A stretch of DNA of 64,000 bases from an uncultured Chitinophagaceae bacterium (GCA_964603685.1 CAZRWF010000003.1:13501-77500); one strand, 5' to 3'. Numbered from the stretch's first letter, positions 5,173 through 50,672 are shown. Numbers and translations: made by a program. Notes: generated from the letters alone by a model not told the origin.

Positions 5173-5213
5173 CGTTTCCCCCGATTAAACATCATGGCAA
5201 AAATTGTTTCCGT

Positions 5214-5810: not shown

Positions 5811-6883
5811 GCGACGAGGGCGTATAGTTTTTCCACAATCTCTTTTCCGGCCTCCGGTTTTCCGATAGCGCGGCTGTTGTTTTCCATCTCCTTCCGGCGT
5901 CGACCGTCCTCGAGCAAATCCTTTATCCGGGGAAGGAGTGCGGTCTTCAGATCGCGGTCATTCAACATCACGGCCGCTCCCGCTTCCACCATCGATGCAG
6001 CATTCAGCGTTTGATGGTCCGCCGCGGCAAATGGAAACGGGACAAGGATCGCCGGTTTTCCCACTCTCGTCAATTCCGCTAATGTCGTGGCTCCGGACCG
6101 GCAGACCACCAGATCGGCCGCAGCGTAACCGCAATCCATCCGCTCGATGTATGTGCGAACGATGATGTTCGTGTGCCGCACCGGTGATGCCTCTTCCTGC
6201 GCCGATTCTCCGGTCTGCCAGATCACTTGATAATCTTCCGCTATCGCATCCTTCACCACCGCGGGCATGGCGGCATTCAAGGAGGCCGCGCCGAGACTTC
6301 CACCGAAGACGAACACTGTTCGTTTTGCCGGTGAGAGCCCGAAATATTCCGCACCGCGTTCGCGCGTAATTTCCGACAATTCGTTGCGGGTGGGATTTCC
6401 CACCACATCGACCGTTGCTTTCGGAGAGAGCCACCGTTTTGTCGCCGCGAACGTGACGAACACTCTGTCCGCCCGCGACGCCAGCATCCGCGTCGTCACG
6501 CCGGGATAACTGTTGCTCTCGTGCACCACGGTCGGAATTCCCATCACCGAAGCAACGAACAACACCGGGCCGCACACATATCCGCCGGTGCCGAGCACGA
6601 TCTGCGGACGAACTTTTCGAATGACAAAGAACGATTGCACCAGCGACACGATCACTTTCAACGGGAAGAGGATGTTGCTCAGCCGGAGCCGCCGGCTGAA
6701 TCCGCTGATCCAGATCGTATGAAATTCATATCCTTTCGCCGGCACCACGCGCGCTTCGATCTTTCCGGCGGTGCCGACAAACACCGCGCGGTTCGCGGGA
6801 TCTTTTTTCGTCATCTCCTCCGCGATGGCAATAGCGGGATACAAATGTCCGCCCGTGCCTCCACCCGCAAAAAGGATCGTCAT
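5807..6883 (-). CDS. murG: UDP-GlcNAc:lipid I N-acetylglucosaminyltransferase MurG
   Basis: 358 aa; MTILFAGGGTGGHLYPAIAIAEEM GT28 N-terminal motif. Confidence 0.95.
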   Translation of the reverse strand: MTILFAGGGTGGHLYPAIAIAEEMTKKDPANRAVFVGTAGKIEARVVPAKGYEFHTIWISGFSRRLRLSNILFPLKVIVSLVQSFFVIRKVRPQIVLGTGGYVCGPVLFVASVMGIPTVVHESNSYPGVTTRMLASRADRVFVTFAATKRWLSPKATVDVVGNPTRNELSEITRERGAEYFGLSPAKRTVFVFGGSLGAASLNAAMPAVVKDAIAEDYQVIWQTGESAQEEASPVRHTNIIVRTYIERMDCGYAAADLVVCRSGATTLAELTRVGKPAILVPFPFAAADHQTLNAASMVEAGAAVMLNDRDLKTALLPRIKDLLEDGRRRKEMENNSRAIGKPEAGKEIVEKLYALVA

Positions 6884-6884
6884 A

Positions 6885-8057
6885 TCAATAAATCTTTCCG
6901 ACCGCCGGTTCGATTGCCGACGGTGCTTGTTCCATAAACATCCGTTCGCGCGGATGCAGATCGGTCTGCGAGGAAATATTCAGCAGAACGCCGACCGCAA
7001 AGGACGAAAAGATGATTGCCGTACCGCCGTAACTGACAAACGGCATCGGTATGCCGGTGGTCGGTGCCAATCCGAGCGTCACGAGCGCGTTCGCAACGGC
7101 ATACAACACAATGGTACACGTGATGCCGATGGCGAGATATTTCCCGAAATCATCCGGCGCATATTTCGCGATCTTCAATCCCCGCAGCAGAATCATCAAA
7201 TAGAGGCCGACAAAAACGATCGTGCCGATCAATCCGTATTCCTCGCCGACGATGGAAAAGATGAAGTCGCCGTACGATTCCGGAAGAAACAGGTCGCGTT
7301 GCTTGCTTTGCCCCATCCCGACCCCGAAGATCCCGCCGTTCCCGAATCCGATGATCCCCTGCAGCAACTGGTAATTCGCCGTCGATGTCACCGTCTCGTC
7401 ACCGCCGAATCCGACGTACGACAGGATCCGTTTCATCCGGTACGGCGCACTGATCATATACACAAGCAACGCCGGCAACAGCGCGCATAACGAGAAAAAA
7501 ACATGTTTCAACCGCGCTCCGCCGACGAAGACGAGAATCATTCCCAGCACGAAGATCATCGAACCGGTGCTGAAGTTCGGCTGCAGCATCACCAGCACCA
7601 CCACGCTGCCGATCCAGATCATCAGCGGCATAAATCCGGTTTTAAAGTCCGCCAGTTTCTCCCGCTTGTTGGAGAGCAGGAAGGCCAGGTGGAACAACAG
7701 TGCAAACTTCGCAATCTCCGACGGCTGCAGGCTGAAACCGCCGATGGACAGCCAGCGCGCCGCCCCTTTGATTTCGCCGCCGGTAAGACGTGTCGCCGCC
7801 AGCAGCAAAATGGATCCGATGAGCACCCATTTGGTCAGCGGTTTGTATTTTTTGTAGTCAAAATTCATCGCAAAAAACATCACCACCAGTCCGACGAGGA
7901 TTTTGGCGATATGTTTGTTCACCAATCCGCTGGCGGACTGCATCTTCTGCATCGCCCAGGTGGACGAGGCGCTGTACACCACAACGGTACTCGCCACCAT
8001 CAGAATGAGGACGACGAACAACGTTATGCGGTCGATATGATTTTTCTGCGACGCCAT
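6885..8057 (-). CDS. ftsW: Peptidoglycan glycosyltransferase / lipid II flippase FtsW (SEDS family)
   Basis: Polytopic membrane protein with SEDS motifs; start set to ATG 8057..8055, which gives a TAATG overlap with the murD stop (the ORF track extends to 8135). Confidence 0.9.
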   Translation of the reverse strand: MASQKNHIDRITLFVVLILMVASTVVVYSASSTWAMQKMQSASGLVNKHIAKILVGLVVMFFAMNFDYKKYKPLTKWVLIGSILLLAATRLTGGEIKGAARWLSIGGFSLQPSEIAKFALLFHLAFLLSNKREKLADFKTGFMPLMIWIGSVVVLVMLQPNFSTGSMIFVLGMILVFVGGARLKHVFFSLCALLPALLVYMISAPYRMKRILSYVGFGGDETVTSTANYQLLQGIIGFGNGGIFGVGMGQSKQRDLFLPESYGDFIFSIVGEEYGLIGTIVFVGLYLMILLRGLKIAKYAPDDFGKYLAIGITCTIVLYAVANALVTLGLAPTTGIPMPFVSYGGTAIIFSSFAVGVLLNISSQTDLHPRERMFMEQAPSAIEPAVGKIY

Positions 8058-38664: not shown

Positions 38665-40446
38665 TCATTTTTGGAGCACCATCTTTTTCGTCTGCACAAA
38701 ATTTCCCGAAATAATGCGGTAGAGATACACACCGCTGGAGAGGTTCGATCCGGTAAATTGGTACGTGTGTGTTCCGGCCGTCAGTGTCCCATCCACCACC
38801 GTCGTGATCTCGCGGCCGAGCAGGTCGTAGATCTTTACGGTCGTCCGCTCCGCCCGTGCGAGCGTGAACCGGATGGTGGTGGAAGGATTGAACGGATTGG
38901 GATAATTCTGTTCCAGCGCGAAAGTGAACGGCGACCGTTGTTCGTCTTCAACGCCGGTGACGGTGACCGATATTTTTGCCGTGGGATTGCTCTCGTTGTG
39001 TAGTTTATCGAACGACGTGACAACGTACGAATACGACGAACCGGTCAATGCACTGTTGTCGGTGAACCGCGTGGTGTCGTTAAGCGTCACATGGATGAGT
39101 TGACGAATGTCGTTCACATTCACGGTATCCGGCGCCTTGGCACGGTAGACCGCAAAATAATGCGACGTGTCGGCGTCTGCTGCCGTCCCTCCCCGCTGCC
39201 ATTGCAGTTGTACGCTGTTGGACGACGTGGTGGCCGCCAGGTTTACCGGTGCGAGCGGCAGCGCATTGTCCAGCCAGGACATGGTGGGATGCAGCGCCCG
39301 GTATTTGAACTGATTGTTCCGAAGCGAATCTTGGATCCCCTTCAGATTATTGGTGACGGATTTGGAACTGAAAGCGACAAAACCGAGCGCACGGCTGTTC
39401 ACTCTGTTCAATTCGATCTGATTTTGAATCTCCGAAGCGGGCCAGTTGCTTTCGGAGGCCGAAAGACGGTAAACGGCGTTGCCGGAATATAAATGGCGGC
39501 CGTTGAGCTGCGTGTTCCACCACGGCATCAGTTTGGAATAATCCTGCCCGCCGCCGATGATCCAATACATTTGCGGAGTGATGTAGTCCACTTTCTGGTT
39601 TTGCAGCCAGTTCAACGCGTCGCAATAGATGGCAGAATATGCATCCAGTCCGGTCACTCCCGCCGGCGTGCCGCTTTTCCAGATGCCGAACGGACTGACG
39701 CCGAACTTCACCCACTTTTTCACCGATTTGATGCTGTCGTGCACCATGGCGATGAATTTGTTTACATTGTTCCGGCGCCAATCACCGATATTGGTGAATC
39801 CTCCGGAAAAATTGGCGAAGGTCGCGCTGTCTTGCTTCGCCATTCCGCCGTACGGATAAAAATAGTCGTCAAAATGGACGCCGTCGATGTTATACCGCCG
39901 GACCACATCCATGATCACACTCGTGGAATATTTCTGCACATCGGGAATGCCCGGATCGAGCAGTTTGTAGGGACTGCTGCCGTAAGTGATGACCCACTCC
40001 GGTTTGGTTTTGGAGATATGCGAAGAATGGACGCTGCTGCCGGCGGAGACCACCGCACGGTACGGATTAAACCACGCGTGTAATTCCATTCCTCTCTTAT
40101 GCGCTTCTTCAATCCAATACTGCAGCGGATCATAATACGAACTGAGGTTCCCCCCCTGCGTGCCGACCAGATATTCGGAGAGCGGTTCCAGCCCCCCCTG
40201 ATATATCGCATCGCACGACGGGCGAACCTGCAGCAGGATCGCGTTGATATTGTTTAACTTATGTTTATCGAGAATCGACACCACTTCCGCTTTTTGCGCA
40301 GTGGTAGTGAGACTCTTGCTGGAAGGCCAATCAATATTGGAAACGGTGGCGACCCATGCAGCACGGAATTCGCGTTTCGGCGGATTCGTCTGCGCGGTGA
40401 GTAAAATTGAAGCACAAACAAAAAAAATGGTAAAGATTTTTTTCAT
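38665..40446 (-). CDS. Glycoside-hydrolase-like family 10 (GHL10/DUF187, YngK-like) protein with T9SS C-terminal sorting domain
   Basis: 593 aa; signal peptide; TIM-barrel-like GHL10 region (VDYITPQMYWIIGGGQDYSKL); C-terminal ~80 aa KIYDLLGREITTVVDG...GVYLYRIISGNFVQTKKMVLQK is a canonical Por/T9SS CTD. Confidence 0.8.
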   Translation of the reverse strand: MKKIFTIFFVCASILLTAQTNPPKREFRAAWVATVSNIDWPSSKSLTTTAQKAEVVSILDKHKLNNINAILLQVRPSCDAIYQGGLEPLSEYLVGTQGGNLSSYYDPLQYWIEEAHKRGMELHAWFNPYRAVVSAGSSVHSSHISKTKPEWVITYGSSPYKLLDPGIPDVQKYSTSVIMDVVRRYNIDGVHFDDYFYPYGGMAKQDSATFANFSGGFTNIGDWRRNNVNKFIAMVHDSIKSVKKWVKFGVSPFGIWKSGTPAGVTGLDAYSAIYCDALNWLQNQKVDYITPQMYWIIGGGQDYSKLMPWWNTQLNGRHLYSGNAVYRLSASESNWPASEIQNQIELNRVNSRALGFVAFSSKSVTNNLKGIQDSLRNNQFKYRALHPTMSWLDNALPLAPVNLAATTSSNSVQLQWQRGGTAADADTSHYFAVYRAKAPDTVNVNDIRQLIHVTLNDTTRFTDNSALTGSSYSYVVTSFDKLHNESNPTAKISVTVTGVEDEQRSPFTFALEQNYPNPFNPSTTIRFTLARAERTTVKIYDLLGREITTVVDGTLTAGTHTYQFTGSNLSSGVYLYRIISGNFVQTKKMVLQK

Positions 40447-41305: not shown

Positions 41306-42643
41306 CTATTTTTCCGCGCTCTCCTCGCTGTCCGCGTCATGCTGTTGTTTTCGTTTCCAATACCAAAAAGCGGGTAGTCCGGAAAAAATCAACAGCAGCC
41401 CGACCGCGGCATCACCCGGGCTTTCCACAATGGTGTTTATTACAAGTCCGGCCGCGAAGAGTATAAACACCGCCGGCGTGAAAGGATATCCGACGGTGCG
41501 GTACGGACGTTCCATTGCGGGATGTTTTTTTCTCAAGATGATGACTGCCCCACAGGACAGTGCGTAAAATATCCAAATCGCAAAGACGATGTACGTGATC
41601 AGCTGCTCGAACGTGCCGAGCCAGACGAGGACGCATGCCCATACGCATTGTGCAACGAGTGCAATCACGGGTGTGCGTGCCACGGCGTGAATCTGCGCCA
41701 TCGGCGGAAAGAAGAGACGTTCTTTCGCCATCGCATAATATATCCGGGGAGCGGTAAAAACAAAAGCATTGTTCGCACCGAACATGGACACCATGATGGC
41801 AATGACCACTCCCCCGGCGCCGGCAGTCCCCAGCATCACCACCGCCGCATCCGAAGCGACGAGGTCCGACGACCGCATCTGTTCCGGCGTCAGCACCATC
41901 AGGAAAGCAAAGTTCACCGCCAGATATAATACGATCACGATAATCGTGGAAAGAAAGAGTGCCCGCGGGATCGTCTTCTCCGGTTCGGCAATTTCGCCGG
42001 CCACAAAACTGAGGTCGACCCAGCCGTCGTACGCCCATAATATCGCGATCATCGCTAATCCGAACGACGGAACCGTGGCCGACCATTCCCACGTTGAGGA
42101 GACCATTCCGCCGGAGAACCATATTCCTCCCGCGGCGATCGCCAACAGAGCCCCCATTTTGAGAAACGTGAGCACATTTTGAACGCCGATGCCGAATTCT
42201 GTCCCGACGGCATTGATGAACGTCAACACAATGATCGATCCCGTGGCGATCAATTTAATTTCGACATCGGAAAGAGGGAAAAAAAATCCCAGATACTGCG
42301 CCGCGCCGACCGCCACAGCGGCAATGGAGGCGGTCATAATCACCGTGAAGGATGCCCACCCGGAAAGAAATCCCCATACGTCGCCGTACGTTTTTTTCAA
42401 ATAGACATATTGTCCCCCCGCAAAGGGCATCATCGCGCCGAGTTCGGCAAAGGAGAGGGCGCCGCACAGACTGACAATCCCGCCGACAACCCAGGCGATA
42501 AGGATTTCCGCCGGAGAGTGCAGCGAAACCGCCACGGCGGCCGGTACAATAAAAATACCGGAGCCGATCATGCTACCGACGTTCAGCATCGTCGCATCGA
42601 GAAGGGTTAAACGTCGGGGAAGGTCCGGCTGACTGTTGGTCAC
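41306..42643 (-). CDS. APC-superfamily amino-acid/polyamine permease; predicted GTG start overlapping the Rieske gene stop (GTGA)
   Basis: ORF track extends to 42793, but that extension lies inside the Rieske CDS. GTG at 42643..42641 gives (M)TNSQPDLPRRLTLLDATMLNVGSMIGSGIF, a typical APC N-terminus, followed by 12 TM helices. Confidence 0.8.
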   Translation of the reverse strand: MTNSQPDLPRRLTLLDATMLNVGSMIGSGIFIVPAAVAVSLHSPAEILIAWVVGGIVSLCGALSFAELGAMMPFAGGQYVYLKKTYGDVWGFLSGWASFTVIMTASIAAVAVGAAQYLGFFFPLSDVEIKLIATGSIIVLTFINAVGTEFGIGVQNVLTFLKMGALLAIAAGGIWFSGGMVSSTWEWSATVPSFGLAMIAILWAYDGWVDLSFVAGEIAEPEKTIPRALFLSTIIVIVLYLAVNFAFLMVLTPEQMRSSDLVASDAAVVMLGTAGAGGVVIAIMVSMFGANNAFVFTAPRIYYAMAKERLFFPPMAQIHAVARTPVIALVAQCVWACVLVWLGTFEQLITYIVFAIWIFYALSCGAVIILRKKHPAMERPYRTVGYPFTPAVFILFAAGLVINTIVESPGDAAVGLLLIFSGLPAFWYWKRKQQHDADSEESAEK

Positions 42644-43752
42644 AGCGATGGAGAGATTTGGTGATTGTTTACTGCGGCGGCGTATGTACGTTTTAATAAC
42701 GATTGAAAATGATAGACACCCTGTTCCGTTTCGGGTGAAAATCGTCCGGTCGTGTATGCATCGGATTCCAGTCCGCGCTGCACATGTTCGCAAATTTCGA
42801 CGTCTTCCACTTGAACGGTGTGACTGTACTCCACATCCTTCAACGCCCGCTCTTCCGCAGCAGGCGAAGCGACATCGTCATAATAAAAATCGAAAATCAC
42901 GCGGCAGGTATTGTGCGACGTCGGCACCACAATGTTGGTTTGGAGCCGTCCGGGAAGGATATTTAACATGAAGTTCGGGTAGAGGAAGTAATAAAATGCA
43001 TTGCCGGTGCCGTAGACCGTATCGTTTTCTTTCAGCGGACTGTATTGCAGGGAGTACGATTCGGCGGTTTCCGTCACGTATTCCTGCAGATCCAACAGGT
43101 CGCATAACTCGGGGTGGACGTACGGCACATGGTATCCTTCCAGATAATTGTCCACGTACGCCTTCCAGTTGCATCGAACATCGTAGATCTTTCGCCGGGA
43201 GAATTTTTTGGCCGCCAAGGATTCGGGGAATATCCGTTCGGAAATTCCCGCGGCATGGCGTGCAAACGGCGTGTTGTTTTCTTTCAGTGATACGAAGAGG
43301 AGTCCCTCCCACTCATCGAGAGCGATCGGGAACAGACCGAAGTCTTTTTTATCAAAAAGATCAACGCGGTTGAACCGGGGCGTTCCGCGGAGACTTCCGT
43401 CGAGCAGATAGGTCCAGCCGTGGTACTTGCACTGCAATACCGACGACCGGCAATCTTCCGTGGCAAGCGGACCGCCGCGGTGACGGCAGACGTTGTAAAA
43501 CGCGCGAATCTGTCCGTCGTTTCCTTTAACCGCAATGACGGGATTACCGGCAACGGTCGCAATGATCTGGTCACCGGGTTCGGTGAGCCGCGATCGGTGT
43601 CCGATATAATGCCAGTGGGTGGAAAAAAGGTGATGCTTTTCGAAGTGATGGACTGCTTCGTCGTGATAGAATCGGGAAGGAAGGGTTTCCGCACGTTCGA
43701 TCGGATGAATAAACAATTCTTCCGGCGATATGCGAAGCGCGGTGCCGCTCAT
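42640..43752 (-). CDS. Rieske [2Fe-2S] non-heme iron oxygenase alpha subunit (choline monooxygenase / GbcA / CntA-like)
   Basis: 370 aa; Rieske motif CRHRGGPL...CKYHGW; mononuclear Fe motif NYLEGYHVPYVHP; ATGA overlap with the upstream gene. Confidence 0.85.
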   Translation of the reverse strand: MSGTALRISPEELFIHPIERAETLPSRFYHDEAVHHFEKHHLFSTHWHYIGHRSRLTEPGDQIIATVAGNPVIAVKGNDGQIRAFYNVCRHRGGPLATEDCRSSVLQCKYHGWTYLLDGSLRGTPRFNRVDLFDKKDFGLFPIALDEWEGLLFVSLKENNTPFARHAAGISERIFPESLAAKKFSRRKIYDVRCNWKAYVDNYLEGYHVPYVHPELCDLLDLQEYVTETAESYSLQYSPLKENDTVYGTGNAFYYFLYPNFMLNILPGRLQTNIVVPTSHNTCRVIFDFYYDDVASPAAEERALKDVEYSHTVQVEDVEICEHVQRGLESDAYTTGRFSPETEQGVYHFQSLLKRTYAAAVNNHQISPSL

Positions 43753-44951
43753 TTTGCCGCCAATCGGCCTTCCACTGCCGCGACGAGTAATTCCACGTCG
43801 ATCGGCTTGGGAAGCGTCAGATCGAAGCCCATGCGCAGAGCGGCGCGCGCGATTTTATTGTTGTTCACCTCCGCCACAAAAAAGAACGGCACATTCTTCA
43901 ACGACGGATGCTCCTGCACTTTTTTGTAAAAACCGAAGCCGTCCAAAGAGCCGGTGGGGAACCGCGCTTCGCAGATGATCAACTTCGGAAATTGTTTCAG
44001 CATCATCTGCAGCGCATCTTCCGCGCGGGAGGTCGCGATGACCTCGTAATTTCTTTGCTGCAGTGCCCGCATCATATTAACTAATTCCGCTTTGTCCGGT
44101 TCAACGATCAAAATGCGTGCTTTCGGCTGCAGCCCCTTTTTTGCTTCTTGGACGATATGTTCGATCGTCAGGTGTTCGTCCGGCGTGATACCGTACCGCC
44201 GGCGCATCATATCCAACACCTGCCGTTCCATTTCGGTAATGACCCCGTCCTTCCACGCGAGACGCAGCGCATCCACGTACGATTCGATCTTCACCTTTTT
44301 TTCGATGACGGCATGTTCTTCATCCGTGATTCCGAATGTCTCGCGGATCAACCGCAATTCCTGCTCTTCCTCTTCCGTCACTTTCCCGTCGAACCAGGCC
44401 TCTTTCATCGTTTCTTCATACATCAACAGGCTTCCGCGATCCAGTTGCAACGGCGAAGTTTCGGCAACGGCGGTTTTTTTCGGCGCCATCGCATTGGAAA
44501 AGATCTTTTGTCCTTCTTGCTGCTGCAATAACATCAACTGTTCGATCCGGTCGGAGTAGGCTTTCGCAAAATGATTTCCCGGGTCGATCTTATAAACTTC
44601 TGCGATCTTTTTTAACGCTTCATCATATTCGTGCTTGGCGATCAGCTGTTCCGCCGCCGAGAACATCTGTGTGATGAGCTGCATGATTTCTTCTTGACTC
44701 AGCGTCGGTGTTTCTTCTTTGGGCGCATTCTGTTTTTGAATGAGCATCACCCTCTGCTGAAAAGATCGGGCAAGGGCGTGTTTCGGATCAATTGTCAGCG
44801 CCTTTTTGATCTCCGCCAGTGCGCCGTCGTAATTTTTTGCCCGGGCCATCTCGTCCGCAAAGCGCAGATGTTTTGAGATGATCTCTTTTTGCTGATCGGC
44901 AGGCGAAGCGGTTGGTTTATTTCCAAACATATTGTTCTTTTCCCCAATCAA
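43749..44951 (-). CDS. TPR-like + tandem TerB-like repeat protein with C-terminal atypical receiver domain (Glu at the acceptor position)
   Basis: 400 aa; two TerB/DjlA-N-like repeats (EAWFDGKVTEEEEQELRLIRETFGITDEEH / LAWKDGVITEMERQVLDMMRRRYGITPDEH); C-terminal CheY-like fold ILIVEPD...KLIICEARFPTGSLDGF...LPKP with E/C where the phospho-Asp is expected. Confidence 0.55.
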   Translation of the reverse strand: MIGEKNNMFGNKPTASPADQQKEIISKHLRFADEMARAKNYDGALAEIKKALTIDPKHALARSFQQRVMLIQKQNAPKEETPTLSQEEIMQLITQMFSAAEQLIAKHEYDEALKKIAEVYKIDPGNHFAKAYSDRIEQLMLLQQQEGQKIFSNAMAPKKTAVAETSPLQLDRGSLLMYEETMKEAWFDGKVTEEEEQELRLIRETFGITDEEHAVIEKKVKIESYVDALRLAWKDGVITEMERQVLDMMRRRYGITPDEHLTIEHIVQEAKKGLQPKARILIVEPDKAELVNMMRALQQRNYEVIATSRAEDALQMMLKQFPKLIICEARFPTGSLDGFGFYKKVQEHPSLKNVPFFFVAEVNNNKIARAALRMGFDLTLPKPIDVELLVAAVEGRLAAK

Positions 44952-45002: not shown

Positions 45003-45033
45003 AAAAATAACAACGCCGCATTTCTGCGGCGTT
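45003..45033 (-). terminator. Rho-independent terminator after the OMP gene 45061..46509
   Basis: Perfect AACGCCGCA-GAAA-TGCGGCGTT hairpin followed by GTTATTTTTGC on the minus strand. Confidence 0.7.
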
Positions 45034-45060: not shown

Positions 45061-46509
45061 TCAAAAGCGGTAACTGACGGTCACATTCACGGCAACGGTG
45101 GAAACGGATTCTTCCATACGGGAGGCATTCGGCACCGCAGGATCGGTATAGTGATTGCGGAATGTCCGGAACGATCCGAACGCCGCGGCACCATCCAAGA
45201 CGACGTTGCGCTGCAGGAATAATCCGAATCCGCCGGTGATCGTCGTGTTATCAAAGGACGCCGGGTCGTTTTTGTACGGAGACGGACTTACGGAGTATCC
45301 GCCGCGAAGCTTTAGATCGGTGGAGGGTACGTCGAATTCTGCACCGATCCGGTAGCCGGTTGTTGCGCGGAAATTGGATTGCATCTGAATATTATTCTTT
45401 TCCAGTACCGGTTCGTCGGTGAATTCTGCCTGCGTCCAATCGCTGTACTCCACATCGGCCGAAACAAGAAATTCCTGTAAGAGATACAACGAAACACCGG
45501 CGCCGAGAGTCCACGGGGATGAAATACCGTATTCATTGGTCGCTGTCGCACTGTGTTTTCGCGCCGGATTGTTTCCGGACCAGGTCCCCGTCGCATCAAA
45601 AATGCTTTCTCCTTCATCCGTATAATTTTCGCGAACCTTTAAAGTGATCGGTCCTTTCGCCACTGCCCCGATGCGGAACCGTTCCGATCGGTACATCATT
45701 CCGAGATGCATGGCACTGCCGCTGATTTCGCCGGAGAGAAAGTTATCGACATAAAACCGGTGGTAACGAACAAAGGCGGAATCGGGTGAAAGACCGGCCG
45801 ATGCATTCGCATAAACATTGTTAACATCTTCTTCCAGGAAATTCCTCGTATAATCGTACATGCCGGAGAAGACATACAGCGAAACACCGAAGGAGATATT
45901 TTCTTCAATATCAATCGCCATGCTGATGGCCCATTGTCCGAGATTCCCCCCTTCTTGTGTCCTGCCCCGCTGTTGAACGTTCCCCGTGATGCTGGAGGCC
46001 GTTCCATTCGTGTCCGTTAAGTATGTTTGATACGCCAAATTAAAATCGGACCGGCCCTGATTCAAATAACTCCGGACAATGGAACTTTGCGTGTTAAATC
46101 CGCTGAACGTGGAGGCGGCCGAAAATTCGGAGATGCGATTGTATCCAAACGCAAAGACCAAACTTCCTCGATCGGTCGGAAACGGAAAAACAAATCCGAT
46201 ATTGTCGAGCGCGGTGGCGGAGGCGCTGGCGTTTTGTGTGGCGGAAATAAACGTGGCATCGTTCGAAGCGGAATAGTTCGAAATTCCTCCCATCACTTCC
46301 AGTCGCCGCAGTTGCGCCAATCCGGCCGGATTGCTGATCGATCCGCTGTAATCATCGGAGATGCCGAAATAGGCGTTTCCCATTCCCAACGAACGGGCGC
46401 CGGCGCCGTTACCGAGGCGCGTATATCGAATAATATCTTCGGAAAATTGCGCCGACAGCATTGCGGTACCGGCGGCGGTGAACAGTACAGCGGCAAAAAA
46501 TCTTTTCAT
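45061..46509 (-). CDS. Outer-membrane beta-barrel protein (FadL/OmpP1-like or PorV-like; family uncertain)
   Basis: 482 aa; signal peptide MKRFFAAVLFTAAGTAMLSAQ; alternating amphipathic beta-strand pattern; C-terminal ...VSYRF aromatic terminus typical of OM barrels. Confidence 0.55.
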   Translation of the reverse strand: MKRFFAAVLFTAAGTAMLSAQFSEDIIRYTRLGNGAGARSLGMGNAYFGISDDYSGSISNPAGLAQLRRLEVMGGISNYSASNDATFISATQNASASATALDNIGFVFPFPTDRGSLVFAFGYNRISEFSAASTFSGFNTQSSIVRSYLNQGRSDFNLAYQTYLTDTNGTASSITGNVQQRGRTQEGGNLGQWAISMAIDIEENISFGVSLYVFSGMYDYTRNFLEEDVNNVYANASAGLSPDSAFVRYHRFYVDNFLSGEISGSAMHLGMMYRSERFRIGAVAKGPITLKVRENYTDEGESIFDATGTWSGNNPARKHSATATNEYGISSPWTLGAGVSLYLLQEFLVSADVEYSDWTQAEFTDEPVLEKNNIQMQSNFRATTGYRIGAEFDVPSTDLKLRGGYSVSPSPYKNDPASFDNTTITGGFGLFLQRNVVLDGAAAFGSFRTFRNHYTDPAVPNASRMEESVSTVAVNVTVSYRF

Positions 46510-46523
46510 AATCGATCCGTAGT

Positions 46524-47204
46524 TTATCGCGGTCTGCTCCGGTCATCGCGTGTTCCTCCGTCCGTTCTGGTGCGCGTGGAAGATTCGTTCGATGAACCGG
46601 AACTATTCGAATTGCGGTCTGTGGTTGCTGCCGGCGTGGCGGTTGCCGGCGGTGCTGTGACCGTTGTTGTCGGCGGAGTCGACGCGGGCGGCGCGGAGGT
46701 TGAACCGCCGACGGGCGCCTGCGGTTGCGTATATGTGCCTGTGGATCTGCGGTCGTCGCGTGTCACTCCATCCGTGCGCGGACGGTCTGTTTCTCCGGCG
46801 GTCGAAGTAGGGGTTGACACAGCAGTCGAAACGGTTGGCGACCACCATGGATTCATCCGGCCCGGCGTGGAAGGCCAGTATGGATTGGGTTCCCGAACAT
46901 ATATTGAGCTCGTTTCCTCGCGCCATTGATGCGCTGCCAGGAGCGATCCGTTGTGCACCGTCCGGATTCCGTACAATCCCAGCTCTTCCGCTCTCTCATC
47001 CAATTCCACCACGCTGTGACACGACACGCACGATTGCTGGAAGTTCATCACCGAAGAATGATCGGTCCGGTGTTGCGACACGGTCGTGGCGGCACGTCGT
47101 GTTTGAATAAAATCGTGCGGACTCATCACTTTTGTATAACAGCCCGGCATCAATATTCCGGCGAACAGTACCGCGGATAATAATATTTTATTGGTTCCGT
47201 TCAC
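46524..47204 (-). CDS. Lipoprotein with a single CxxCH motif and a Pro/Thr-rich disordered tail carrying RTDGxTRD repeats
   Basis: ORF track (to 47369) overlaps the upstream gene; GTG 47204 lies 1 nt after the upstream stop and gives (M)NGTNKILLSAVLFAGILMPGC, a lipoprotein signal. Contains QQSCVSCHS; tail TPTSTAGETDRPRTDGVTRDD...TRTRTDGGTRDDRSRPR. Confidence 0.45.
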   Translation of the reverse strand: MNGTNKILLSAVLFAGILMPGCYTKVMSPHDFIQTRRAATTVSQHRTDHSSVMNFQQSCVSCHSVVELDERAEELGLYGIRTVHNGSLLAAHQWREETSSIYVREPNPYWPSTPGRMNPWWSPTVSTAVSTPTSTAGETDRPRTDGVTRDDRRSTGTYTQPQAPVGGSTSAPPASTPPTTTVTAPPATATPAATTDRNSNSSGSSNESSTRTRTDGGTRDDRSRPR

Positions 47205-47205
47205 G

Positions 47206-48252
47206 TCACTCTCCCCTTCTGCCGGAGTTGCCGGAGGTCGATCCGGAATTGCCGCTGCTTCGCGGAGCGGATTGAGCCGGCGGCGATTGTTGTTGCGGCG
47301 GCGGCGATACGTGTTGCTGTCTCGGTTGACGGGGACGTTCTTCCGATTTCGGCTCCTCTTTGGGAACATTTTTTTTCACCGGCGGAGTGAATCGCGGCTC
47401 TTCCCGTTTCGGACGTTCCGGGGCGGTTTCATCTTGTCGTTCTGCTTTTTTGGGGGGAACATATCGCGGCTGATCGCGCACCGGTTGATTATTTACCGGA
47501 CGTTCTGCCGGAAGAATTCGACGTGTCTCTCCCGGTGTTGCCGGCGGCGGTGCCGGTCGTTCTTCACCCTCCGCGACTCTGGTCGTTTTGGTTTCACTCA
47601 CTTTTTCCCACCACGGTTTTTCCGTATCGCGTCGCCCCTCCGGCGGTTTCGGCCCCTCCGGTACCCATGTGCCCGTTCTGCCGACAGTGATCGGACCGGT
47701 GGACGGAACGGAGGGGGGATTGCCTGCGGTTGGCCGGTCGCGGCCGGGAATCGGGTCTCGGGTCGGCCCATCCGTTCGCGGTCGATCGGTCGTTACCGGC
47801 CTGTCATTATAGACCGGTGACGGGTAATAGACCGGGTAATACACAACAGGAGGATAGTAGACCGGATAAGGATAGGGGTACGGATACCACGGATCCCAAT
47901 ATGGCGGCGGAGCGTAACACCAACCGTACGAGGAGTAGAATGGATCATAATACCATGACGGTCGGTGGTACATTCCCCAATAATAGTTGTCAAAATATGA
48001 ATGATAGTACGCGCTGATCCAGGAAGTATAGGTCGGATAATAATAGTTGAAGGAGACACGCAGCCGCGAACGGCGGTAGTCATCATCAAGATAATAATGA
48101 TTGTTGATCGTCGTATTTCCCGCTTCGGTGGATGTATCCGATGCGTACGATTGGTCTCGGTCTTCTGTTTCTCTTGTCGCCAATTCCGTATAACATCCGG
48201 AAAAAACGAATACACAAACAGCGGCCGTCATCATCATCAGTCCCGGTTTCAT
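47206..48252 (-). CDS. Lipoprotein with an extreme Tyr/Pro/Trp-rich low-complexity segment and Pro/Lys/Glu-rich tail
   Basis: 348 aa; lipoprotein signal MKPGLMMMTAAVCVFVFSGC; ~90-aa segment YYYPTYTSWISAYYHSYFDNYYWGMYHRPSWYYDPFYSSYGWCYAPPPYWDPWYPYPYPYPVYYPPVVYYPVYYPSPVY; then DRPRTDGPTRD and a long proline-rich, highly charged (Lys/Glu/Arg) tail. Confidence 0.55.
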   Translation of the reverse strand: MKPGLMMMTAAVCVFVFSGCYTELATRETEDRDQSYASDTSTEAGNTTINNHYYLDDDYRRSRLRVSFNYYYPTYTSWISAYYHSYFDNYYWGMYHRPSWYYDPFYSSYGWCYAPPPYWDPWYPYPYPYPVYYPPVVYYPVYYPSPVYNDRPVTTDRPRTDGPTRDPIPGRDRPTAGNPPSVPSTGPITVGRTGTWVPEGPKPPEGRRDTEKPWWEKVSETKTTRVAEGEERPAPPPATPGETRRILPAERPVNNQPVRDQPRYVPPKKAERQDETAPERPKREEPRFTPPVKKNVPKEEPKSEERPRQPRQQHVSPPPQQQSPPAQSAPRSSGNSGSTSGNSGRRGE

Positions 48253-48427
48253 GGCTCACCTCTTTGTTGGTCGTACCAATAAAAACACACACAGAAGGAA
48301 AATCATTCCGTACAATGTACCATATTCACCGGCACATATCAATGGAGACGAAACGAGCGTAGAAAAGGTTTAATAGCGGATTGGGTTGAATTTTGTCACA
48401 ATATGGAAGATTCGGGCAACCGTCCGG

Positions 48428-49192
48428 TCAAAATGTCCGGACATATTCCACCTTTAACGTCCGGTTCGCAAACGTCACATTCTGCTGGTTTTTTGCCATG
48501 TTTTTCAGATCGAATCCGAGTGTTAACCCGTTGGCAAGCGACCAGCGGATGCCGGTATTTAAATATCCTTTGCCTTGACCGAGCGCACGGCCGTGACTGT
48601 CGTTAAACGCAAAATCATATTCTGCCATCAGAGAGATCTCTTGTCCGAGCGATTTTTCCACACCCCAATAGACATTCATATCCTTGTCGCCGTCCGATTT
48701 TTCCATACTCCAGTTCACTCCGCCGTGAAAGCTTAAATAGCCGAGGAAGGAATAATTTTTGCTCGCGGCGATGAAGATCCCCCGCGATTTGATCGTAAAC
48801 CGCTCCAGCGAGTCGAGGTAGGTCTCTTTTCCCTGCGAATCGAATCCGAAAGCGACGGCCGGCATCGATTCGCTTTCGTCGAAGAGCCGGTATTTCACCA
48901 TCACGCCCGGAAGTTTTTGCATCGTGGTGTTTCCTTTGCCGATAATGCCGACGCCGCCGTACGAAATTCCGAAGGTGAGCCGGTCCAACGCTCCCGCATA
49001 CAATCCGAAGGTCAGTCCGCCGTCCTGAAAAAAGTTCGACTCCAGTGAAAAGGCCCCGCGTTTTAACAATCCCGCCGTCGGCGTATCGATAAGGAACCGC
49101 GGTTCGATATTGGCGGCATCGCCGGCGGAATTCTGTCCGAACGCCGGGGAGACCGCAAAGAACATGATCGCAATGAGGGCTAACACTTTCAT
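48428..49192 (-). CDS. Small outer-membrane beta-barrel protein (OmpA-N/OmpW/PorT-like, about 8-10 strands)
   Basis: ORF trimmed to MKVLALIAIMFFAVSPAFGQ (signal peptide); C-terminal ...LKVEYVRTF; alternating hydrophobic strands. Confidence 0.55.
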   Translation of the reverse strand: MKVLALIAIMFFAVSPAFGQNSAGDAANIEPRFLIDTPTAGLLKRGAFSLESNFFQDGGLTFGLYAGALDRLTFGISYGGVGIIGKGNTTMQKLPGVMVKYRLFDESESMPAVAFGFDSQGKETYLDSLERFTIKSRGIFIAASKNYSFLGYLSFHGGVNWSMEKSDGDKDMNVYWGVEKSLGQEISLMAEYDFAFNDSHGRALGQGKGYLNTGIRWSLANGLTLGFDLKNMAKNQQNVTFANRTLKVEYVRTF

Positions 49193-49229: not shown

Positions 49230-50672
49230 TTACTCTTTTTTCCACGTGGTTCCCTCTTTTGTGTCTTCCAGCACCACACCCATCGCTTTGAGGTCGTCGC
49301 GAATCTTGTCCGACAACGCAAACTGTTTTGCCGTCCGTGCGGCCGCGCGGGAGGCGATGAGCAATTCGATCAATTGCGGTTCGAGTCCGCCGGACGACGA
49401 TGCTGCCGCCGTTAACCGAATGCCGAGGATCGTTTCTGCCGCAGAGGTGAAGAACTGATCGAGTGTGACAAAAAATTCGTGCGAGCCGTTCTTGGCATCG
49501 GAGAGCAATTCGTTCGTCTCACGCACCACTTCGAACAGTACGCCGATCGCCGCCGGTGCGTTCACATCGTCGTTCATCGCCTCAAAGAACCGTTTTTTGT
49601 ACTCTTTCAGGCGGTCCTTAAAATCGATCGTTCCGGCCCGCTGCCGGGCGATCTCTCCGCGCAGACGTGCGACGGTGTTGCGGAGTTTTTCCAGTCCTTT
49701 CGCCGCCCCCTCCACCGCCTGCTCGCTGTAGTCCAGCGTGCTGCGGTAATGACTTTGAAGAATAAAAAACCGGATGACCCCCGGTTCGAATTTTTTAAAT
49801 GCGTCCTTTAAGGTGGTAAAATTGCCGAGCGATTTTCCCATCTTCTGCCCGTTCACTGTCACGAGATTGTTGTGCATCCAATATTTGACGAAGGGACGCT
49901 GTGTCAGGCATTCGCTCTGAGCGATTTCGCATTCGTGATGCGGAAATTGATTGTCCATCCCGCCGCCGTGGATGTCGAATGTCTCGCCGAGATATTTCAT
50001 GGACATTGCGGAACATTCGATGTGCCACCCGGGGAATCCTTCTCCCCAGGGTGAATTCCACCGCATCAGATGATTCGGTTCCGCCTTTTTCCACAACGCA
50101 AAATCGGCCGGGTGGCGTTTTTCGGATTTTACTTCCACGCGCGTTCCCGATTCCGCTTCGTCGAGATTCCGGCCGGACAATTTCCCGTATTCTTTATCCT
50201 TGCTGACGTCGAAATAGACCGAGCCATTCGCTTCGTAGGCAAACCCTTTGGCGAGCAGCTGCTGGGTCATCGCAATCTGTTCTGGTATGTGCCCCGTGGC
50301 GCGTGGAGAAATATCGGGACGAAGAATATTCAACGCATCCATATCCTCGAAATATTCCCGCGTGTACATCTCCACCACCTGCATCGGATGCAGCTTATCC
50401 TTTTTCGCCTGTTTGGCGATCTTGTCTTCTCCCTCATCGGCATCGTCGGTCAAATGGCCCACATCGGTGATGTTCTGCACGTATGTGACGGCATATCCGA
50501 GATACCGCAGATACCGCACGACCACATCGAACGACACATAACTTTTTGCGTGGCCCAGGTGCGACAGTCCGTACACCGTCGGACCGCAGACGTACATGCG
50601 GACGATCCCTTCGTTCAGCGGAATGAATTCTTCTTTAGTTCGCGTGAGTGAGTTGGTGATAAAAAGTGGCAT
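49230..50672 (-). CDS. cysS: Cysteine--tRNA ligase
   Basis: 480 aa; HIGH motif (HLGH) in [17 protein letters not shown]; KMSKS motif as KMGKS. Confidence 0.95.

Follow-up and report, generated by a model that had tools for sequence, protein, structure and literature searches.

A conserved barrel and lipoprotein gene module of Ignavibacteria with a tyrosine-rich, disordered lipoprotein

Which envelope structure, if any, is specified by two outer-membrane beta-barrel genes that enclose two lipoprotein genes, one of them with a segment that is about one-third tyrosine, is the question raised by a locus in the window analysed here, the whole stretch of 64,000 nucleotides. A first-pass annotation of the DNA had suggested a surface structural module, exported or anchored by the barrels, whose tyrosines might be cross-linked. 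We followed this proposal through gene order, families, motifs and predicted structures.

Layout and conservation of the four genes

All four genes, OMP254, lipo1, lipo2 and OMP482, lie in this order on the minus strand between cysS and an intrinsic terminator (Table 1), which confirms the annotated bracketing of the lipoprotein genes by barrel genes. The terminator, described earlier as clean, is real (AACGCCGC-AGAAAT-GCGGCGTT, then GTTATTTTTG) and is the only one of the unit. The stop codon TGA of lipo1 is followed by 1 base and then by the GTG of lipo2 (47202-47204), with AGGGGAG upstream of it, just as a 1-nt gap and a GTG start had been predicted; in relatives this junction is an overlap of 1-4 nt or a 2-nt gap, and the gap between lipo2 and OMP482 is 14 nt. 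In the spacer before lipo1, a promoter scan finds TTGATA-17-TACATT with an upstream TG (48342-48314), and the same blocks are invariant in an alignment of 9 orthologous spacers while the remainder is variable and takes insertions; a small GGAAnnnnTTCC hairpin and then a ribosome-binding site, GAGGTG, are also present.

Table 1. Positions of genes, regulatory elements and protein motifs, counted from the first letter of the window
Feature	Position	Strand	Remark
OMP254	48428-49192	-	254-aa barrel
OMP254-lipo1 spacer	48253-48427	-	conserved promoter-like element
ATTAAACCTT box in spacer	~48367-48376	-	invariant block, 9-spacer alignment
TTGATA in spacer	48337-48342	-	promoter scan and 9-spacer alignment
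TG-n-TACATT in spacer	48314-48322	-	promoter scan and 9-spacer alignment
lipo1	47206-48252	-	348-aa lipoprotein
lipo1 signal peptide and lipobox, residues 1-20	48193-48252	-	mature N-terminus CYTELAT
lipo1 aromatic block, residues 53-148	47809-48096	-	opens with YYLDDDYRRSRLRVSFNYYYP, then Tyr/Trp/Pro-rich stretch
lipo1 copy of shared Arg/Asp motif, RPRTDGPTRDPIPGRDRP, residues 157-174	47731-47784	-	R159, G162, R165, R171 invariant
lipo1 PWWEK motif, residues 213-217	47602-47616	-	W214, W215 invariant (46 sequences); local pLDDT rise to 68
lipo1 disordered basic tail	47209-47601	-	Pro, Arg, Lys, Glu abundant; RPRE..R.SYSPPP; basic C-terminus GRKRD-like
lipo2	46524-47204	-	226-aa lipoprotein, GTG start
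lipo2 CVSCH, residues 59-63	47016-47030	-	candidate haem c attachment site
lipo2 shared motif copy 1, RPRTDGVTRD, residues 141-150	46755-46784	-	R141, R143, G146, R149 invariant; T148, D150 nearly
lipo2 shared motif copy 2, RTRTDGGTRD, residues 211-220	46545-46574	-	R213, G216, R219, D220, R224, R226 invariant
OMP482	45061-46509	-	482-aa barrel
Intrinsic terminator closing the unit	45012-45033	-	9 pairs, 6 GC; T-rich tail

Among the 56 species-level loci with enough downstream DNA, OMP254, lipo1, optional lipo2 and OMP482 are contiguous in 55, and the 56th has a truncated lipo1; an OMP482-like gene occurs in all 56. The flanks vary: downstream neighbours differ among loci, and in one clade an amidohydrolase-like gene (by sequence motifs) is inserted between cysS and OMP254. 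Judged from this gene order, the four genes are a real module in the sampled Ignavibacteria genomes, and the co-occurrence that the first-pass annotation asked about holds with lipo2 as an optional member (33 of 56 loci, absent from the other 23), which by the same comparison is dispensable in the module.

It might be argued that there is no functional unit at all, and that four unrelated envelope genes are kept together by recN-cysS synteny alone. Indeed, in those related loci whose upstream region was examined, recN and cysS are kept there as well, a response regulator is conserved downstream in the nearest clade, and the gap from OMP254 to lipo1 contains a separate promoter; part of the conservation is thus simple lineage inertia. 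However, the block survives where its flanks change, its genes overlap or lie 1-14 nt apart, the lipoproteins have two docking-like elements in common, and the lipo1 family is found only beside these barrels, carried by 55 of 56 loci and with one architecture in all its clusters. We consider this reading very unlikely.

The two lipoproteins and their common elements

The signal peptide of lipo1 ends in ...FSGC, and G19, C20 (the lipidation cysteine), Y21 and T22 do not vary across 46 sequences. The 90-residue stretch richest in tyrosine (59-148) contains 28 Tyr (31%) together with 16 Pro and 6 Trp, in agreement with the tyrosine-rich segment noted at first pass, and Pro, Arg, Glu and Thr are abundant in the last 198. 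Had this frame not been the translated one, the whole proposal would have fallen; but the aromatic block is kept in 46 homologues, and against 10 orthologues the nucleotide differences concentrate at third codon positions (0.49-0.61, vs 0.12-0.32 at positions 1 and 2), so that, on comparative grounds, purifying selection acts on the block in the Tyr-rich frame. Its conservation goes residue by residue: N51, Y53, Y54, L55, D56, D57, Y59, R60, S62 and R63, and further S67, Y70, Y71, P73, Y82, S85, G93 and W122, are the same in all 46 sequences. The tail is otherwise poorly conserved, with R306 and P317 invariant and R308, S314, Y315, R345 and R347 nearly so.

No Pfam, NCBIfam or PDB match was obtained for lipo1, and its homologues bear no label or 'hypothetical protein' at source, so that the Tyr/Pro/Trp-rich protein is, by these searches, a member of an unannotated family, as had been supposed. 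The family is small: a search of 1.84 billion representatives yields no more than 53 clusters, each of ~300-370 aa, with matches beginning at the lipobox Cys. Disorder, which had been left for checking, is what AF2 returns from 46 sequences (pLDDT 52.8, pTM 0.18, with slight pLDDT rises at motifs); by this prediction lipo1 is an intrinsically disordered outer-membrane lipoprotein with no predicted fold.

Three features lie beyond the first-pass annotation: the dispensability of lipo2, its invariant CxxCH and a CYT N-terminus common to both lipoproteins. The signal peptide of lipo2 ends in ...MPGC, with the Cys invariant in 13 homologues (10 from databases, the sequence of this window and 2 from related loci), and is followed by a ~100-aa N-terminal domain with the CxxCH. 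After this domain come PWW and a disordered tail rich in Thr, Pro and Ser, in which the shared motif occurs twice, the second time close to a C-terminal RPR. C59, C62, H63 and H84 are invariant in 13/13 sequences, and CxxCH occurs in 30 of the 33 lipo2-bearing loci (missing in L006, L033 and L035). It is possibly a haem c attachment site, to judge from the pattern; profile matches of the family are weak (CCP_MauG, E = 0.053, three members; cytochrome c555, E = 1.3). A haem c domain would most simply be periplasmic, whereas the partners known for FadL-type anchor barrels lie outside the cell.

With these data the idea can be weighed that lipo1 serves at the surface as a structural protein or adhesive, which the barrels export or anchor and whose tyrosines are oxidatively cross-linked (dityrosine or DOPA), with haem-bearing lipo2 as a possible oxidant. 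The extreme composition of lipo1, the resemblance of OMP254 to the polypeptide-secretion barrel FapF, the extracellular partners held by FadL-type barrels of the superphylum and the lipo2 CxxCH with its MauG/dihaem peroxidase match speak for it. But that match is not significant, no tyrosinase, laccase or peroxidase was found among 10 neighbouring genes scanned, and an obligatory catalyst is unlikely to be absent from 23 of 56 loci and to lose its CxxCH in three more. Moreover, the aromatic positions (Y, W, P and G) are individually invariant and not merely conserved in composition, which fits specific binding, or folding on a partner, better than bulk cross-linkable material. Cross-linking is therefore unsupported, and we would give this reading only a slim chance; the module resembles an integral complex of the envelope more than a cross-linked adhesive. 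As for the surface location, export of the lipoproteins is plausible by analogy with FapF and BamG/PorV-type barrels, but neither lipo1 nor lipo2 carries the at least 2 acidic residues that the Bacteroidota surface-lipoprotein rule places within six positions after the Cys (PMC12578637), and the absence of this signal counts against the original proposal.

The motif noted earlier in both tails is present, as DRPRTDGPTRD in lipo1 and as DRPRTDGVTRD and RTRTDGGTRD in lipo2. Chance alone gave the pattern R.R..G.[TS]R[DE] in 0.03% (lipo1) and 0.02% (lipo2) of 20,000 shuffles, and never in both. An hhalign comparison of the two families gives one block of ~33 columns, which is the Arg/Asp motif (probability 97.9%, E = 6e-13), with no aligned region outside it; this is, by alignment, one short linear motif of ~30 residues within unrelated tails, which points to a common partner, as had been suggested, but not to a family of tail repeats. 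The mature N-terminus CYT is invariant in both lipoproteins and is found in every lipo1-like protein from related loci, in a search anchored on that motif. That lipo1 and lipo2 have nothing but these two elements in common is what one would expect if the two elements serve for docking.

Two barrels of different families

OMP254 consists of a signal peptide and a 12-strand outer-membrane beta-barrel of the YjbH-N-terminal/FapF type, in every strand of which hydrophobic and polar residues alternate. The AF2 model (83 sequences) has 12 strands, pLDDT 81.7 and pTM 0.77, and the top 18 Foldseek matches in PDB are all FapF (E = 3e-7), at a TM of ~0.5 that is not specific between 12-strand barrels, followed by NanC, KdgM, OmpG and NalP. 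It matches Pfam YjbH with E = 4.5e-6 and 26.2 bits (cut-off 24 bits), covering only profile positions 10-105 of 658, and many of its 1252 homologues are named 'YjbH domain-containing' by NCBI; the N-terminal barrel of YjbH/GfcD has been placed in the FapF family (PMC8346858). A 26-residue N-terminal segment is conserved, and the acidic loops GFDSQGKETY.DSLERF and EK.DGDKDM strongly so. Since its identity is 76-88% in genomes where that of lipo1 is 33-50%, OMP254 evolves about as slowly as CysS, even in its long loops.

Such similarity may suggest a split GfcD/YjbH-like exporter of a lipid-anchored polymer, in which OMP254 would be the GfcD N-terminal barrel and OMP482, through a lateral opening, would take on the function suggested for the C-terminal barrel with its lateral gate. 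The aromatic-rich lipoprotein would stand in for the middle domain in the periplasm, with Tyr/Trp stacking as its means of binding glycan or peptidoglycan. GfcD is predicted as a 12-strand FapF-family barrel, a periplasmic peptidoglycan-binding domain and a second barrel of 13 strands, arranged in a 14-strand topology, whose lateral gate has been compared with that of FadL (PMC8346858; PMC11494523). The gene order of the module mirrors this domain order, OMP254 attains the YjbH gathering score, and a lipoprotein and a small, natively unstructured protein are likewise among the products of the gfc and yjb operons (PMC8346858). Nevertheless, the profile matches only ~90 residues of OMP254, OMP482 has no YjbH match at E <= 0.1, the block has no GfcB/GfcC/Wza-type genes and the unit no polysaccharide genes, and the function of GfcD is itself only modelled. 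We regard this exporter as unlikely.

OMP482 is a FadL/Toluene_X-type barrel, its orthologues having a precomputed Pfam Toluene_X match, and thus belongs to a different family from OMP254. It ends in the beta-signal SYRF and has a conserved mature N-terminus, QF.EDALRFS..G.GAR..GMGNAY, with Q21, D25 and R28 invariant. The best NCBIfam match of OMP482 and of 7 of 8 orthologues tested is BamG, with 49-91 bits against a cut-off of 250 and with only positions 113-373 of 397 covered; its N-terminal part matches PorV/PorQ profiles instead. By profile scores, BamG and PorV are its closest families, far below the BamG cut-off.

The module could then be an Ignavibacterial BAM accessory pair that aids outer-membrane protein assembly, with OMP482 as BamG and the upstream lipoprotein as BamH. 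This would accord with the leading place of BamG among the matches, the conserved OMP482 N-terminus, the class-wide conservation and slow evolution expected of an essential machine, and the order of lipoprotein and then barrel, as in IALB_1454 (BamH) and IALB_1455 (BamG) of Ignavibacterium album, for which only one BamG is listed (PMC12611786, supplementary table 1). Besides the low score, however, the extensions at both termini by which BamG differs from other FadL proteins are left unmatched, OMP482 ending directly in SYRF without a C-tail; BamH is a folded DNRLRE/CBM-like lipoprotein, whereas lipo1 and lipo2 are disordered and have no NCBIfam match; and the at least 2 acidic residues after the Cys of BamH-K (PMC12578637) are lacking. 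Its probability is, in our estimate, small.

A proposed outer-membrane complex and its known relatives

We tentatively favour, at somewhat below an even chance, a dedicated outer-membrane complex that is a standard envelope part of Ignavibacteria, with the lipoproteins as cognate partners of the barrels. The contiguity despite differing flanks, the short gaps with a single terminator and the conserved promoter before lipo1 argue for it, as do a FapF-like barrel with YjbH N-terminal homology beside one nearest BamG/PorV with an invariant mature N-terminus, and a lipoprotein disordered in AF2 yet invariant at its aromatic positions. Against it stands the Ignavibacteriaceae-type clade, where the motif takes another form (R.SG.RR.G) and the OMP254 loops hardly change.

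In the proposed complex, lipo1 and lipo2 would be lipidated at the invariant Cys, and we infer that their N-terminus, CYT-x-L/M-x-T, docks into or against OMP482, while the Arg/Asp motif (R-x-R-x-x-G-x-T-R-D ... R-x-R-P) would bind OMP254, likely at its invariant acidic loops or in a lumen whose wall bears small residues and a handful of conserved charges. The aromatic block, not folding alone, would gain order only upon contact with the barrels or the membrane interface, and the fast-evolving basic Pro-rich tail, with 2-3 small conserved motifs, may be a flexible tether, or a spacer, that reaches a further layer of the envelope. lipo2 would be a lineage-specific add-on with the same two docking elements and probably with haem. 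Overall, such a complex would act in envelope structure or biogenesis, as a tether or scaffold, and not as an enzyme. In a bolder extension, which we think rather unlikely, the lipo1 chain would thread OMP254, and a single protein would then be exposed on either face of the outer membrane.

Known systems give models for both contacts. FapF/YjbH-N-type barrels like OMP254 are a class known to accommodate unfolded polypeptide. For OMP482 the nearest comparison is BamGH, from which the module differs in a barrel under the BamG cut-off and a partner lipoprotein that is not BamH-like, and this counts against the complex. Within BamGH, the lipoprotein BamH is wedged into the FadL-type barrel BamG by its lipidated N-terminus, which is highly conserved (PMC12578637), and bamH and bamG are adjacent in many genomes of the superphylum (PMC12578637; PMC12611786), where FadL-type barrels act as protein anchors; the docking of lipo1 and lipo2 on OMP482 may follow this model.

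Layout and distribution of the gene block

Between cysS and a terminator lie four co-oriented genes, in which two outer-membrane barrels, OMP254 and OMP482, flank two lipoproteins, lipo1 and lipo2; gene coordinates and a terminator scan show that the first-pass annotation had described this arrangement correctly. It had also read the lipoprotein genes as 1 nt apart with a GTG start for the second, and one base indeed separates the lipo1 stop codon from the lipo2 GTG, while the gap between lipo2 and OMP482 is 14 nt. The terminator is the sole terminator-like site at a gene boundary on the minus strand of this region. The 175-nt spacer 5' of lipo1 (48253-48427) contains blocks invariant across nine orthologous spacers, which coincide with a sigma-70-like promoter, TTGATA-17 nt-TG-n-TACATT, at 48342-48314. 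It also holds an upstream ATTAAACCTT box, a small GGAAnnnnTTCC leader hairpin and the ribosome-binding site GAGGTG; in three relatives an insertion that varies separates the -10 element from the GGAAnnnnTTCC hairpin. Besides read-through from cysS and OMP254, lipo1, lipo2 and OMP482 probably have a promoter of their own. At gathering thresholds Rfam gave no match in the whole 64 kb (no tRNA, rRNA or riboswitch), and likewise none in the lipo1 spacer.

Features of the block and their positions in the window
Feature	Position	Strand	Remarks
cysS	49230-50672		adjoins the module on the OMP254 side
OMP254	48428-49192	minus	254-aa outer-membrane barrel
lipo1	47206-48252	minus	348-aa lipoprotein with Tyr-rich aromatic block
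lipo2	46524-47204	minus	226-aa lipoprotein
lipo2 CxxCH	47016-47030		residues 59-63; invariant H84 downstream
OMP482	45061-46509	minus	482-aa outer-membrane barrel
Terminator	45033-45012	minus	9 pairs, 6 GC, T-rich tail

Three further minus-strand genes were noted downstream. Adjoining the terminator (43749-44951) is the gene of a 400-aa protein that has TPR/coiled regions at its N-terminus and a receiver domain at its C-terminus but no output domain recognised by Pfam; it is syntenic in the nearest clade only. A Rieske-type ring-hydroxylating oxygenase alpha subunit is encoded at 42640-43752, and a GHL10 glycosyl-hydrolase-like protein at 38665-40446. Because the latter bears a C-terminal sorting domain of the type IX kind, a type IX secretion system is presumably present in the organism.

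Scanning one genome per species gave 214 genomes with a relative of OMP254, and the 80 loci listed of these are overwhelmingly Ignavibacteria-type MAGs, with a few under other taxonomic labels. Linkage was counted in the 56 non-duplicate loci with at least 3.3 kb downstream. Co-occurrence across genomes, a check suggested by the first-pass annotation, holds for OMP254-lipo1-OMP482 in 55/56: an OMP482-like gene is found within 3.5 kb in 56/56, and a lipo1-like gene stands between the barrels in every locus except one with a truncated copy. lipo2 is present in 33 and absent from 23 of the 56. In distant Ignavibacteriaceae-type loci lipo1 falls below BLAST detection, yet a gene of the same architecture is there: it has the lipobox followed by CYT, an acidic linker, (I/V)GF.YYYP, a Tyr/Trp/Gly/Pro-rich block, an R.SG.RR.G-type motif, a disordered Ser/Arg/Gly tail, PAPSYSPP and a basic C-terminus. 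These loci also carry between cysS and OMP254 a gene of about 500 aa, amidohydrolase-like by sequence (4485-5987 in locus L054, 4430-5956 in L080); absent from the window, it was rejected as a part of the module.

The downstream neighbours of the block differ among loci. Since the flanks vary around it, lineage inertia has a share in keeping the block intact but does not account for all of it; we give only a slim chance to synteny without function. Some copies are interrupted: OMP482 is split in L037 (8281-10165), lipo1 is cut to 117 aa in L056 (about 6993-7427) and lipo2 to 113 aa in L025 (7997-8398), which may reflect assembly errors or real decay. In addition, L014, L047 and several loci named uncultured Chitinophagaceae show an Ignavibacteria-type locus and synteny under Synechococcus sp., Acidobacteriota or Chitinophagaceae labels, which points to mis-binned or mislabelled MAG contigs in public records.

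Two disordered lipoproteins with common short elements

The densest 90 residues of lipo1 contain 28 Tyr, 16 Pro and 6 Trp, bearing out the segment of about 90 residues, one-third tyrosine with Pro and Trp, that had been noticed from the DNA; in a tail of 198 residues Pro, Arg, Glu and Thr abound. The first-pass annotation had worried mainly that this frame might not be the translated one. However, the frame is genuine, as shown by the codon-position bias against ten orthologues with DNA (0.12-0.32 differences per site at positions 1 and 2 vs 0.49-0.61 at position 3) and by a family of 46 proteins found by database search (35-57% identity, including the window's own sequence at 100%). All the matches come from Ignavibacteria/Bacteroidota MAGs, and those with a source name are called "hypothetical protein". 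The lipo1 signal peptide ends ...VFSGC, with G-C invariant in the 46 sequences, which predicts lipidation. Conservation in the alignment is highest over the aromatic block, where many single Y, W, P and G positions are invariant; the AF2 model from the 46 sequences predicts disorder (pLDDT 52.8), with small rises of confidence at conserved motifs.

Regarding relatives elsewhere, lipo1 has no match in Pfam, NCBIfam or PDB, and its aromatic part finds nothing in Pfam or NCBIfam even at E <= 10, including any Tyr/Trp-repeat family. With a profile of its first 200 residues, no more than 53 clusters were retrieved out of 1.84 billion representatives; all are of about 300-370 aa and match from the lipobox Cys in every case. 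A literature search for tyrosine-rich disordered outer-membrane lipoproteins returned nothing comparable. The lipo1 family, disordered and one-third tyrosine, is new, and is seen here only in Ignavibacteria-type genomes or contigs.

The first-pass annotation had taken this tyrosine content as a possible sign of a cross-linked surface or adhesive protein, an idea that did not fare well and that we now consider quite improbable. A scan of ten neighbouring genes revealed neither a tyrosinase nor a peroxidase nor a cytochrome-maturation gene, and thus no oxidase close by; lipo2 is missing from 23/56 loci; and the residue-level conservation of the aromatic block argues for specific contacts.

lipo2 is also predicted to be lipidated, its signal peptide ending ...LMPGC with G-C invariant in 13 sequences. 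In its N-terminal domain of about 100 residues C59, C62 and H63 (CxxCH) as well as H84 are invariant in 13/13 aligned sequences, and CxxCH is present in 30 of the 33 loci with lipo2, three lineages (L006, L033, L035) having lost it while retaining the remainder of lipo2. From these residues, CxxCH is a candidate haem c site and lipo2 may perhaps be a small c-type cytochrome. Profile hints of a cytochrome are non-significant (CCP_MauG, E = 0.053 in 3/13 members; cytochrome c555, E = 1.3), a PDB search with the domain only gave no cytochrome, and no cytochrome profile or structure was matched significantly. NCBIfam at E <= 0.1 gave one non-significant, unrelated match (E = 0.066), and neither the four proteins nor the lipo2 domain by itself had a significant match in sequence and profile searches of the PDB.

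Two short elements are common to both lipoproteins. The first is the Arg/Asp motif R-x-R-x-x-G-x-[TS]-R-[DE], with one copy in lipo1 and two in lipo2; in 20,000 composition-preserving shuffles it arose in at most 0.03% for either lipoprotein and never in both. Aligning the two families, hhalign finds only the block of this motif (33 columns, probability 97.9%, E = 6e-13). Of the tail repeats formerly ascribed to both proteins, the common motif therefore stands, but it is a single short linear motif in tails otherwise unrelated. Paralogy of lipo1 and lipo2 was considered and rejected, as these 33 columns alone align and the order of elements differs, PWW following the motif in lipo1 but preceding it in lipo2. 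The second element is the mature N-terminus, C-Y-T-(E/Q/R/H)-(L/M/F/V) in lipo1 and C-Y-T-(Q/V/K)-L-M in lipo2, where CYT is invariant in all the lipo1- and lipo2-like proteins that a CYT-anchored search of the loci yielded. The same two short elements in two unrelated disordered proteins, encoded between the same barrels, are most simply read as marking two clients of the same docking sites.

The two barrels and a possible complex

OMP254 matches Pfam YjbH (PF06082) at 26.2 bits (gathering cut-off 24, E = 4.5e-6) over profile positions 10-105 of 658 only, and many of its 1252 homologues in the database search have a precomputed PF06082 match or are named "YjbH domain-containing". Its AF2 model, from an 83-sequence alignment, is a confidently predicted single 12-strand barrel (pLDDT 81.7, pTM 0.77), in which every strand alternates lipid-facing and lumen-facing residues as expected, the lumen side being mostly Gly, Ser, Thr and Ala with a few conserved charges. 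When this model was compared with solved structures by Foldseek, ranks 1-18 were all FapF chains (E 3.4e-7 to 2e-5, probability 1.00), followed by NanC, KdgM, OmpG and the NalP translocator. With 12-16% sequence identity and TM 0.45-0.52, the predicted model places OMP254 in the same barrel class as FapF, a TM of about 0.5 not indicating a close relative. This result agrees with published work, in which the N-terminal barrel of YjbH/GfcD is a 12-strand barrel of the FapF family (PMC8346858, PMC11494523).

OMP254, its long acidic loops included, keeps 76-88% identity in genomes where the figures are 71-89% for CysS and 33-50% for lipo1; a comparison of correlated change across clades finds these loops almost invariant and the lipo1 motif altered in form. 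Loop conservation of this kind is unusual among outer-membrane proteins. We also observed that the predicted long loops, nearly invariant across the class, are strongly acidic, for example EKSDGDKDM at residues 164-172, and that the DGDKD run resembles a calcium-binding loop.

OMP482 belongs to the FadL/Toluene_X type, as its orthologues have a precomputed Pfam Toluene_X match, and it also matches the BamG, PorV and PorQ profiles. BamG (NCBIfam NF053685) is the best curated family for OMP482 and 7/8 orthologues tested, with 53.5 bits for OMP482 and 48.9-91.2 bits for eight orthologues, under the curated cut-off of 250 bits. The alignment covers HMM positions 113-373 of 397 only, leaving the BamG-specific N- and C-terminal extensions unmatched, and the N-terminal part of OMP482 aligns to PorV/PorQ profiles rather than BamG. 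The mature N-terminus QF.EDALRFS... is invariant, and the chain terminates at the beta-signal SYRF without a tail. Neither the window nor 86 related loci held a second FadL-type paralogue as a possible "true" BamG.

Such FadL-type barrels of the Fibrobacterota, Chlorobiota and Bacteroidota have recently been seen as protein-holding platforms, in the pairs BamG-BamH, PorV-PorU and PorQ-PorZ. In two 2025 structures of the Bacteroidota BAM, the FadL-type BamG holds the surface lipoprotein BamH, whose highly conserved lipidated N-terminus is wedged between BamG strands beside BamG's own conserved N-terminus, and many genomes of the superphylum have bamH and bamG side by side (PMC12611786, PMC12578637). 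This contact was compared with the function in substrate binding proposed for PorV, likewise a FadL homologue (PMC12578637).

Whereas the analysis establishes gene linkage, fold classes, motifs and disorder, all protein-protein contacts, the topology and the role are inferred. For the function, drawn from analogy only, we tentatively favour a dedicated complex with a structural or biogenetic role. In such a complex OMP482 would, like BamG, grip the CYT... N-termini of the lipoproteins, and the FapF/YjbH-type barrel OMP254 would bind or thread the Arg/Asp motif, a proposal suggested by its invariant acidic loops and by its lumen of small residues and conserved charges. Passage of lipo1 itself through OMP254 is unlikely. 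The aromatic block, unable to fold alone, would take on order against the barrels or at the membrane interface, and the variable tail, basic and Pro-rich, would serve as a tether.

The topology may be viewed in two ways. The surface-lipoprotein signal of Bacteroidota calls for two or more acidic residues among the six that follow Cys (PMC12578637). Neither lipo1 (CYTELAT, with one acidic residue, for which many members have Q, R or H) nor lipo2 (CYTKVMS, with none) follows this rule, which is Bacteroidota-derived and may not apply to Ignavibacteria. Lack of the signal favours a periplasmic location, as do the candidate haem c domain of lipo2, which would most simply be periplasmic, and the resemblance of the lipo1 tail to Pro-rich periplasmic spacers. 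Surface exposure is favoured, on the other side, because BamG partners are extracellular (PMC12611786, PMC12578637), because FapF-type barrels pass unfolded polypeptide, and because the long OMP254 loops are invariant, as if under a conserved partner.

A redox device of a new kind would be another reading, in which monohaem lipo2, anchored in the outer membrane, acts with Tyr/Trp-rich lipo1 placed in or through the narrow FapF-type barrel. Electrons could cross the outer membrane by hopping from one aromatic side chain to the next, making a minimal "porin-cytochrome" without multihaem proteins, or haem-driven radical chemistry could cross-link tyrosines of envelope proteins in situ. The invariant CxxCH and His, the invariant aromatic positions and the docking motifs common to both lipoproteins would suit this reading, but lipo2 is missing from 23/56 loci and no cytochrome fold was found, and we regard it as very improbable.

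Returning to the dedicated complex, the module joins a YjbH-N-type barrel, a BamG/PorV-like barrel and a one-third-Tyr disordered lipoprotein in one class-conserved unit with testable docking motifs. To our knowledge the N-terminal barrel of YjbH/GfcD has no known role, and we know of almost no envelope biochemistry in Ignavibacteria. If the proposed contacts are true, the module would be a simple natural system for barrels that grip or thread disordered lipoproteins, would give the first functional handle on the YjbH-type N-barrel and would define a lineage-specific envelope component of Ignavibacteria.

Comparison with known systems

As in small monohaem c-type cytochrome lipoproteins, lipo2 has an invariant CxxCH with a downstream His in a secreted domain of about 100 aa behind a lipobox; unlike them, it has no significant cytochrome match and its CxxCH is lost in three lineages. 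RcsF with OmpA/C/F, the Slam-dependent surface lipoproteins and the TonB/TolA linkers are anchored proteins with long disordered segments that depend on barrels or span the periplasm. From general knowledge, the lipo1 tail (PPVKKNVPKEEPKSEERPRQP) resembles the Pro/Lys/Glu spacers of this kind, but by sequence they are unrelated, and none of these proteins is known to carry an aromatic block of the lipo1 type.

FapF, which secretes functional amyloid in Pseudomonas, is similar in that a gene for a 12-strand barrel lies beside one for an unfolded low-complexity protein. FapF has a long N-terminal coiled-coil and plug region, whereas in the OMP254 model only 26 residues (21-46) precede the first strand. 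Moreover, there are no fapA-E genes, the neighbours of OMP254 being cysS and lipo1, and the predicted lipid anchor of lipo1 together with 17% Pro in its aromatic block argues against amyloid.

The YjbH/GfcD likeness goes beyond the N-terminal match and the 12-strand FapF-type barrel. After the N-barrel the chain of about 700 aa continues with a periplasmic domain that binds peptidoglycan and then a C-terminal barrel with a lateral gate (PMC8346858, PMC11494523), and the gene order here mirrors this domain order (12-strand barrel, periplasmic/lipoprotein part, laterally open 14-strand-type barrel); the gfcABCD and yjbEFGH operons also include unstructured low-complexity proteins and lipoproteins. 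The module might accordingly be imagined as a split GfcD/YjbH-like exporter of a lipid-anchored polymer. However, the homology spans only about 90 residues, the unit has no glycan genes, and its parts are separate genes rather than one two-barrel chain. OMP482 is FadL-type with no detectable relation to the GfcD C-terminal barrel, and there is no peptidoglycan-binding middle domain, GfcB/GfcC homologue or capsule gene; nor are the operon partners GfcA/B/C (YjbE/F/G) there, lipo1 and lipo2 having no Pfam or NCBIfam family. We therefore think a split exporter improbable.

A close parallel in arrangement is BamG-BamH, as also PorV-PorU and PorQ-PorZ of type IX secretion, where a FadL-family barrel gene adjoins a lipoprotein gene; in BamG-BamH, as here, a barrel with a conserved N-terminus goes with a lipoprotein whose lipidated N-terminus is highly conserved. 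With BamG the best-matching family for OMP482 and the gene order suggestive, the module could be the Ignavibacterial equivalent, and a single BamG is listed for I. album, IALB_1455, with IALB_1454 as BamH (PMC12611786); a literature search meant to tie the locus to I. album gave no paper with these tags. But OMP482 stays far under the BamG cut-off with the terminal extensions unmatched, and BamH is a folded DNRLRE/CBM-like surface lipoprotein (PMC12611786), unlike the disordered, aromatic-rich lipo1. The module further adds the 12-strand barrel OMP254. Equivalence is a rather doubtful reading. What is known already, then, is the barrel superfamilies and the principle of a barrel with its cognate lipoprotein; what is new, besides the lipo1 family, is the free-standing YjbH-N-type barrel and the fixed combination of lipo1 and this barrel with a BamG/PorV-like barrel and shared docking motifs.
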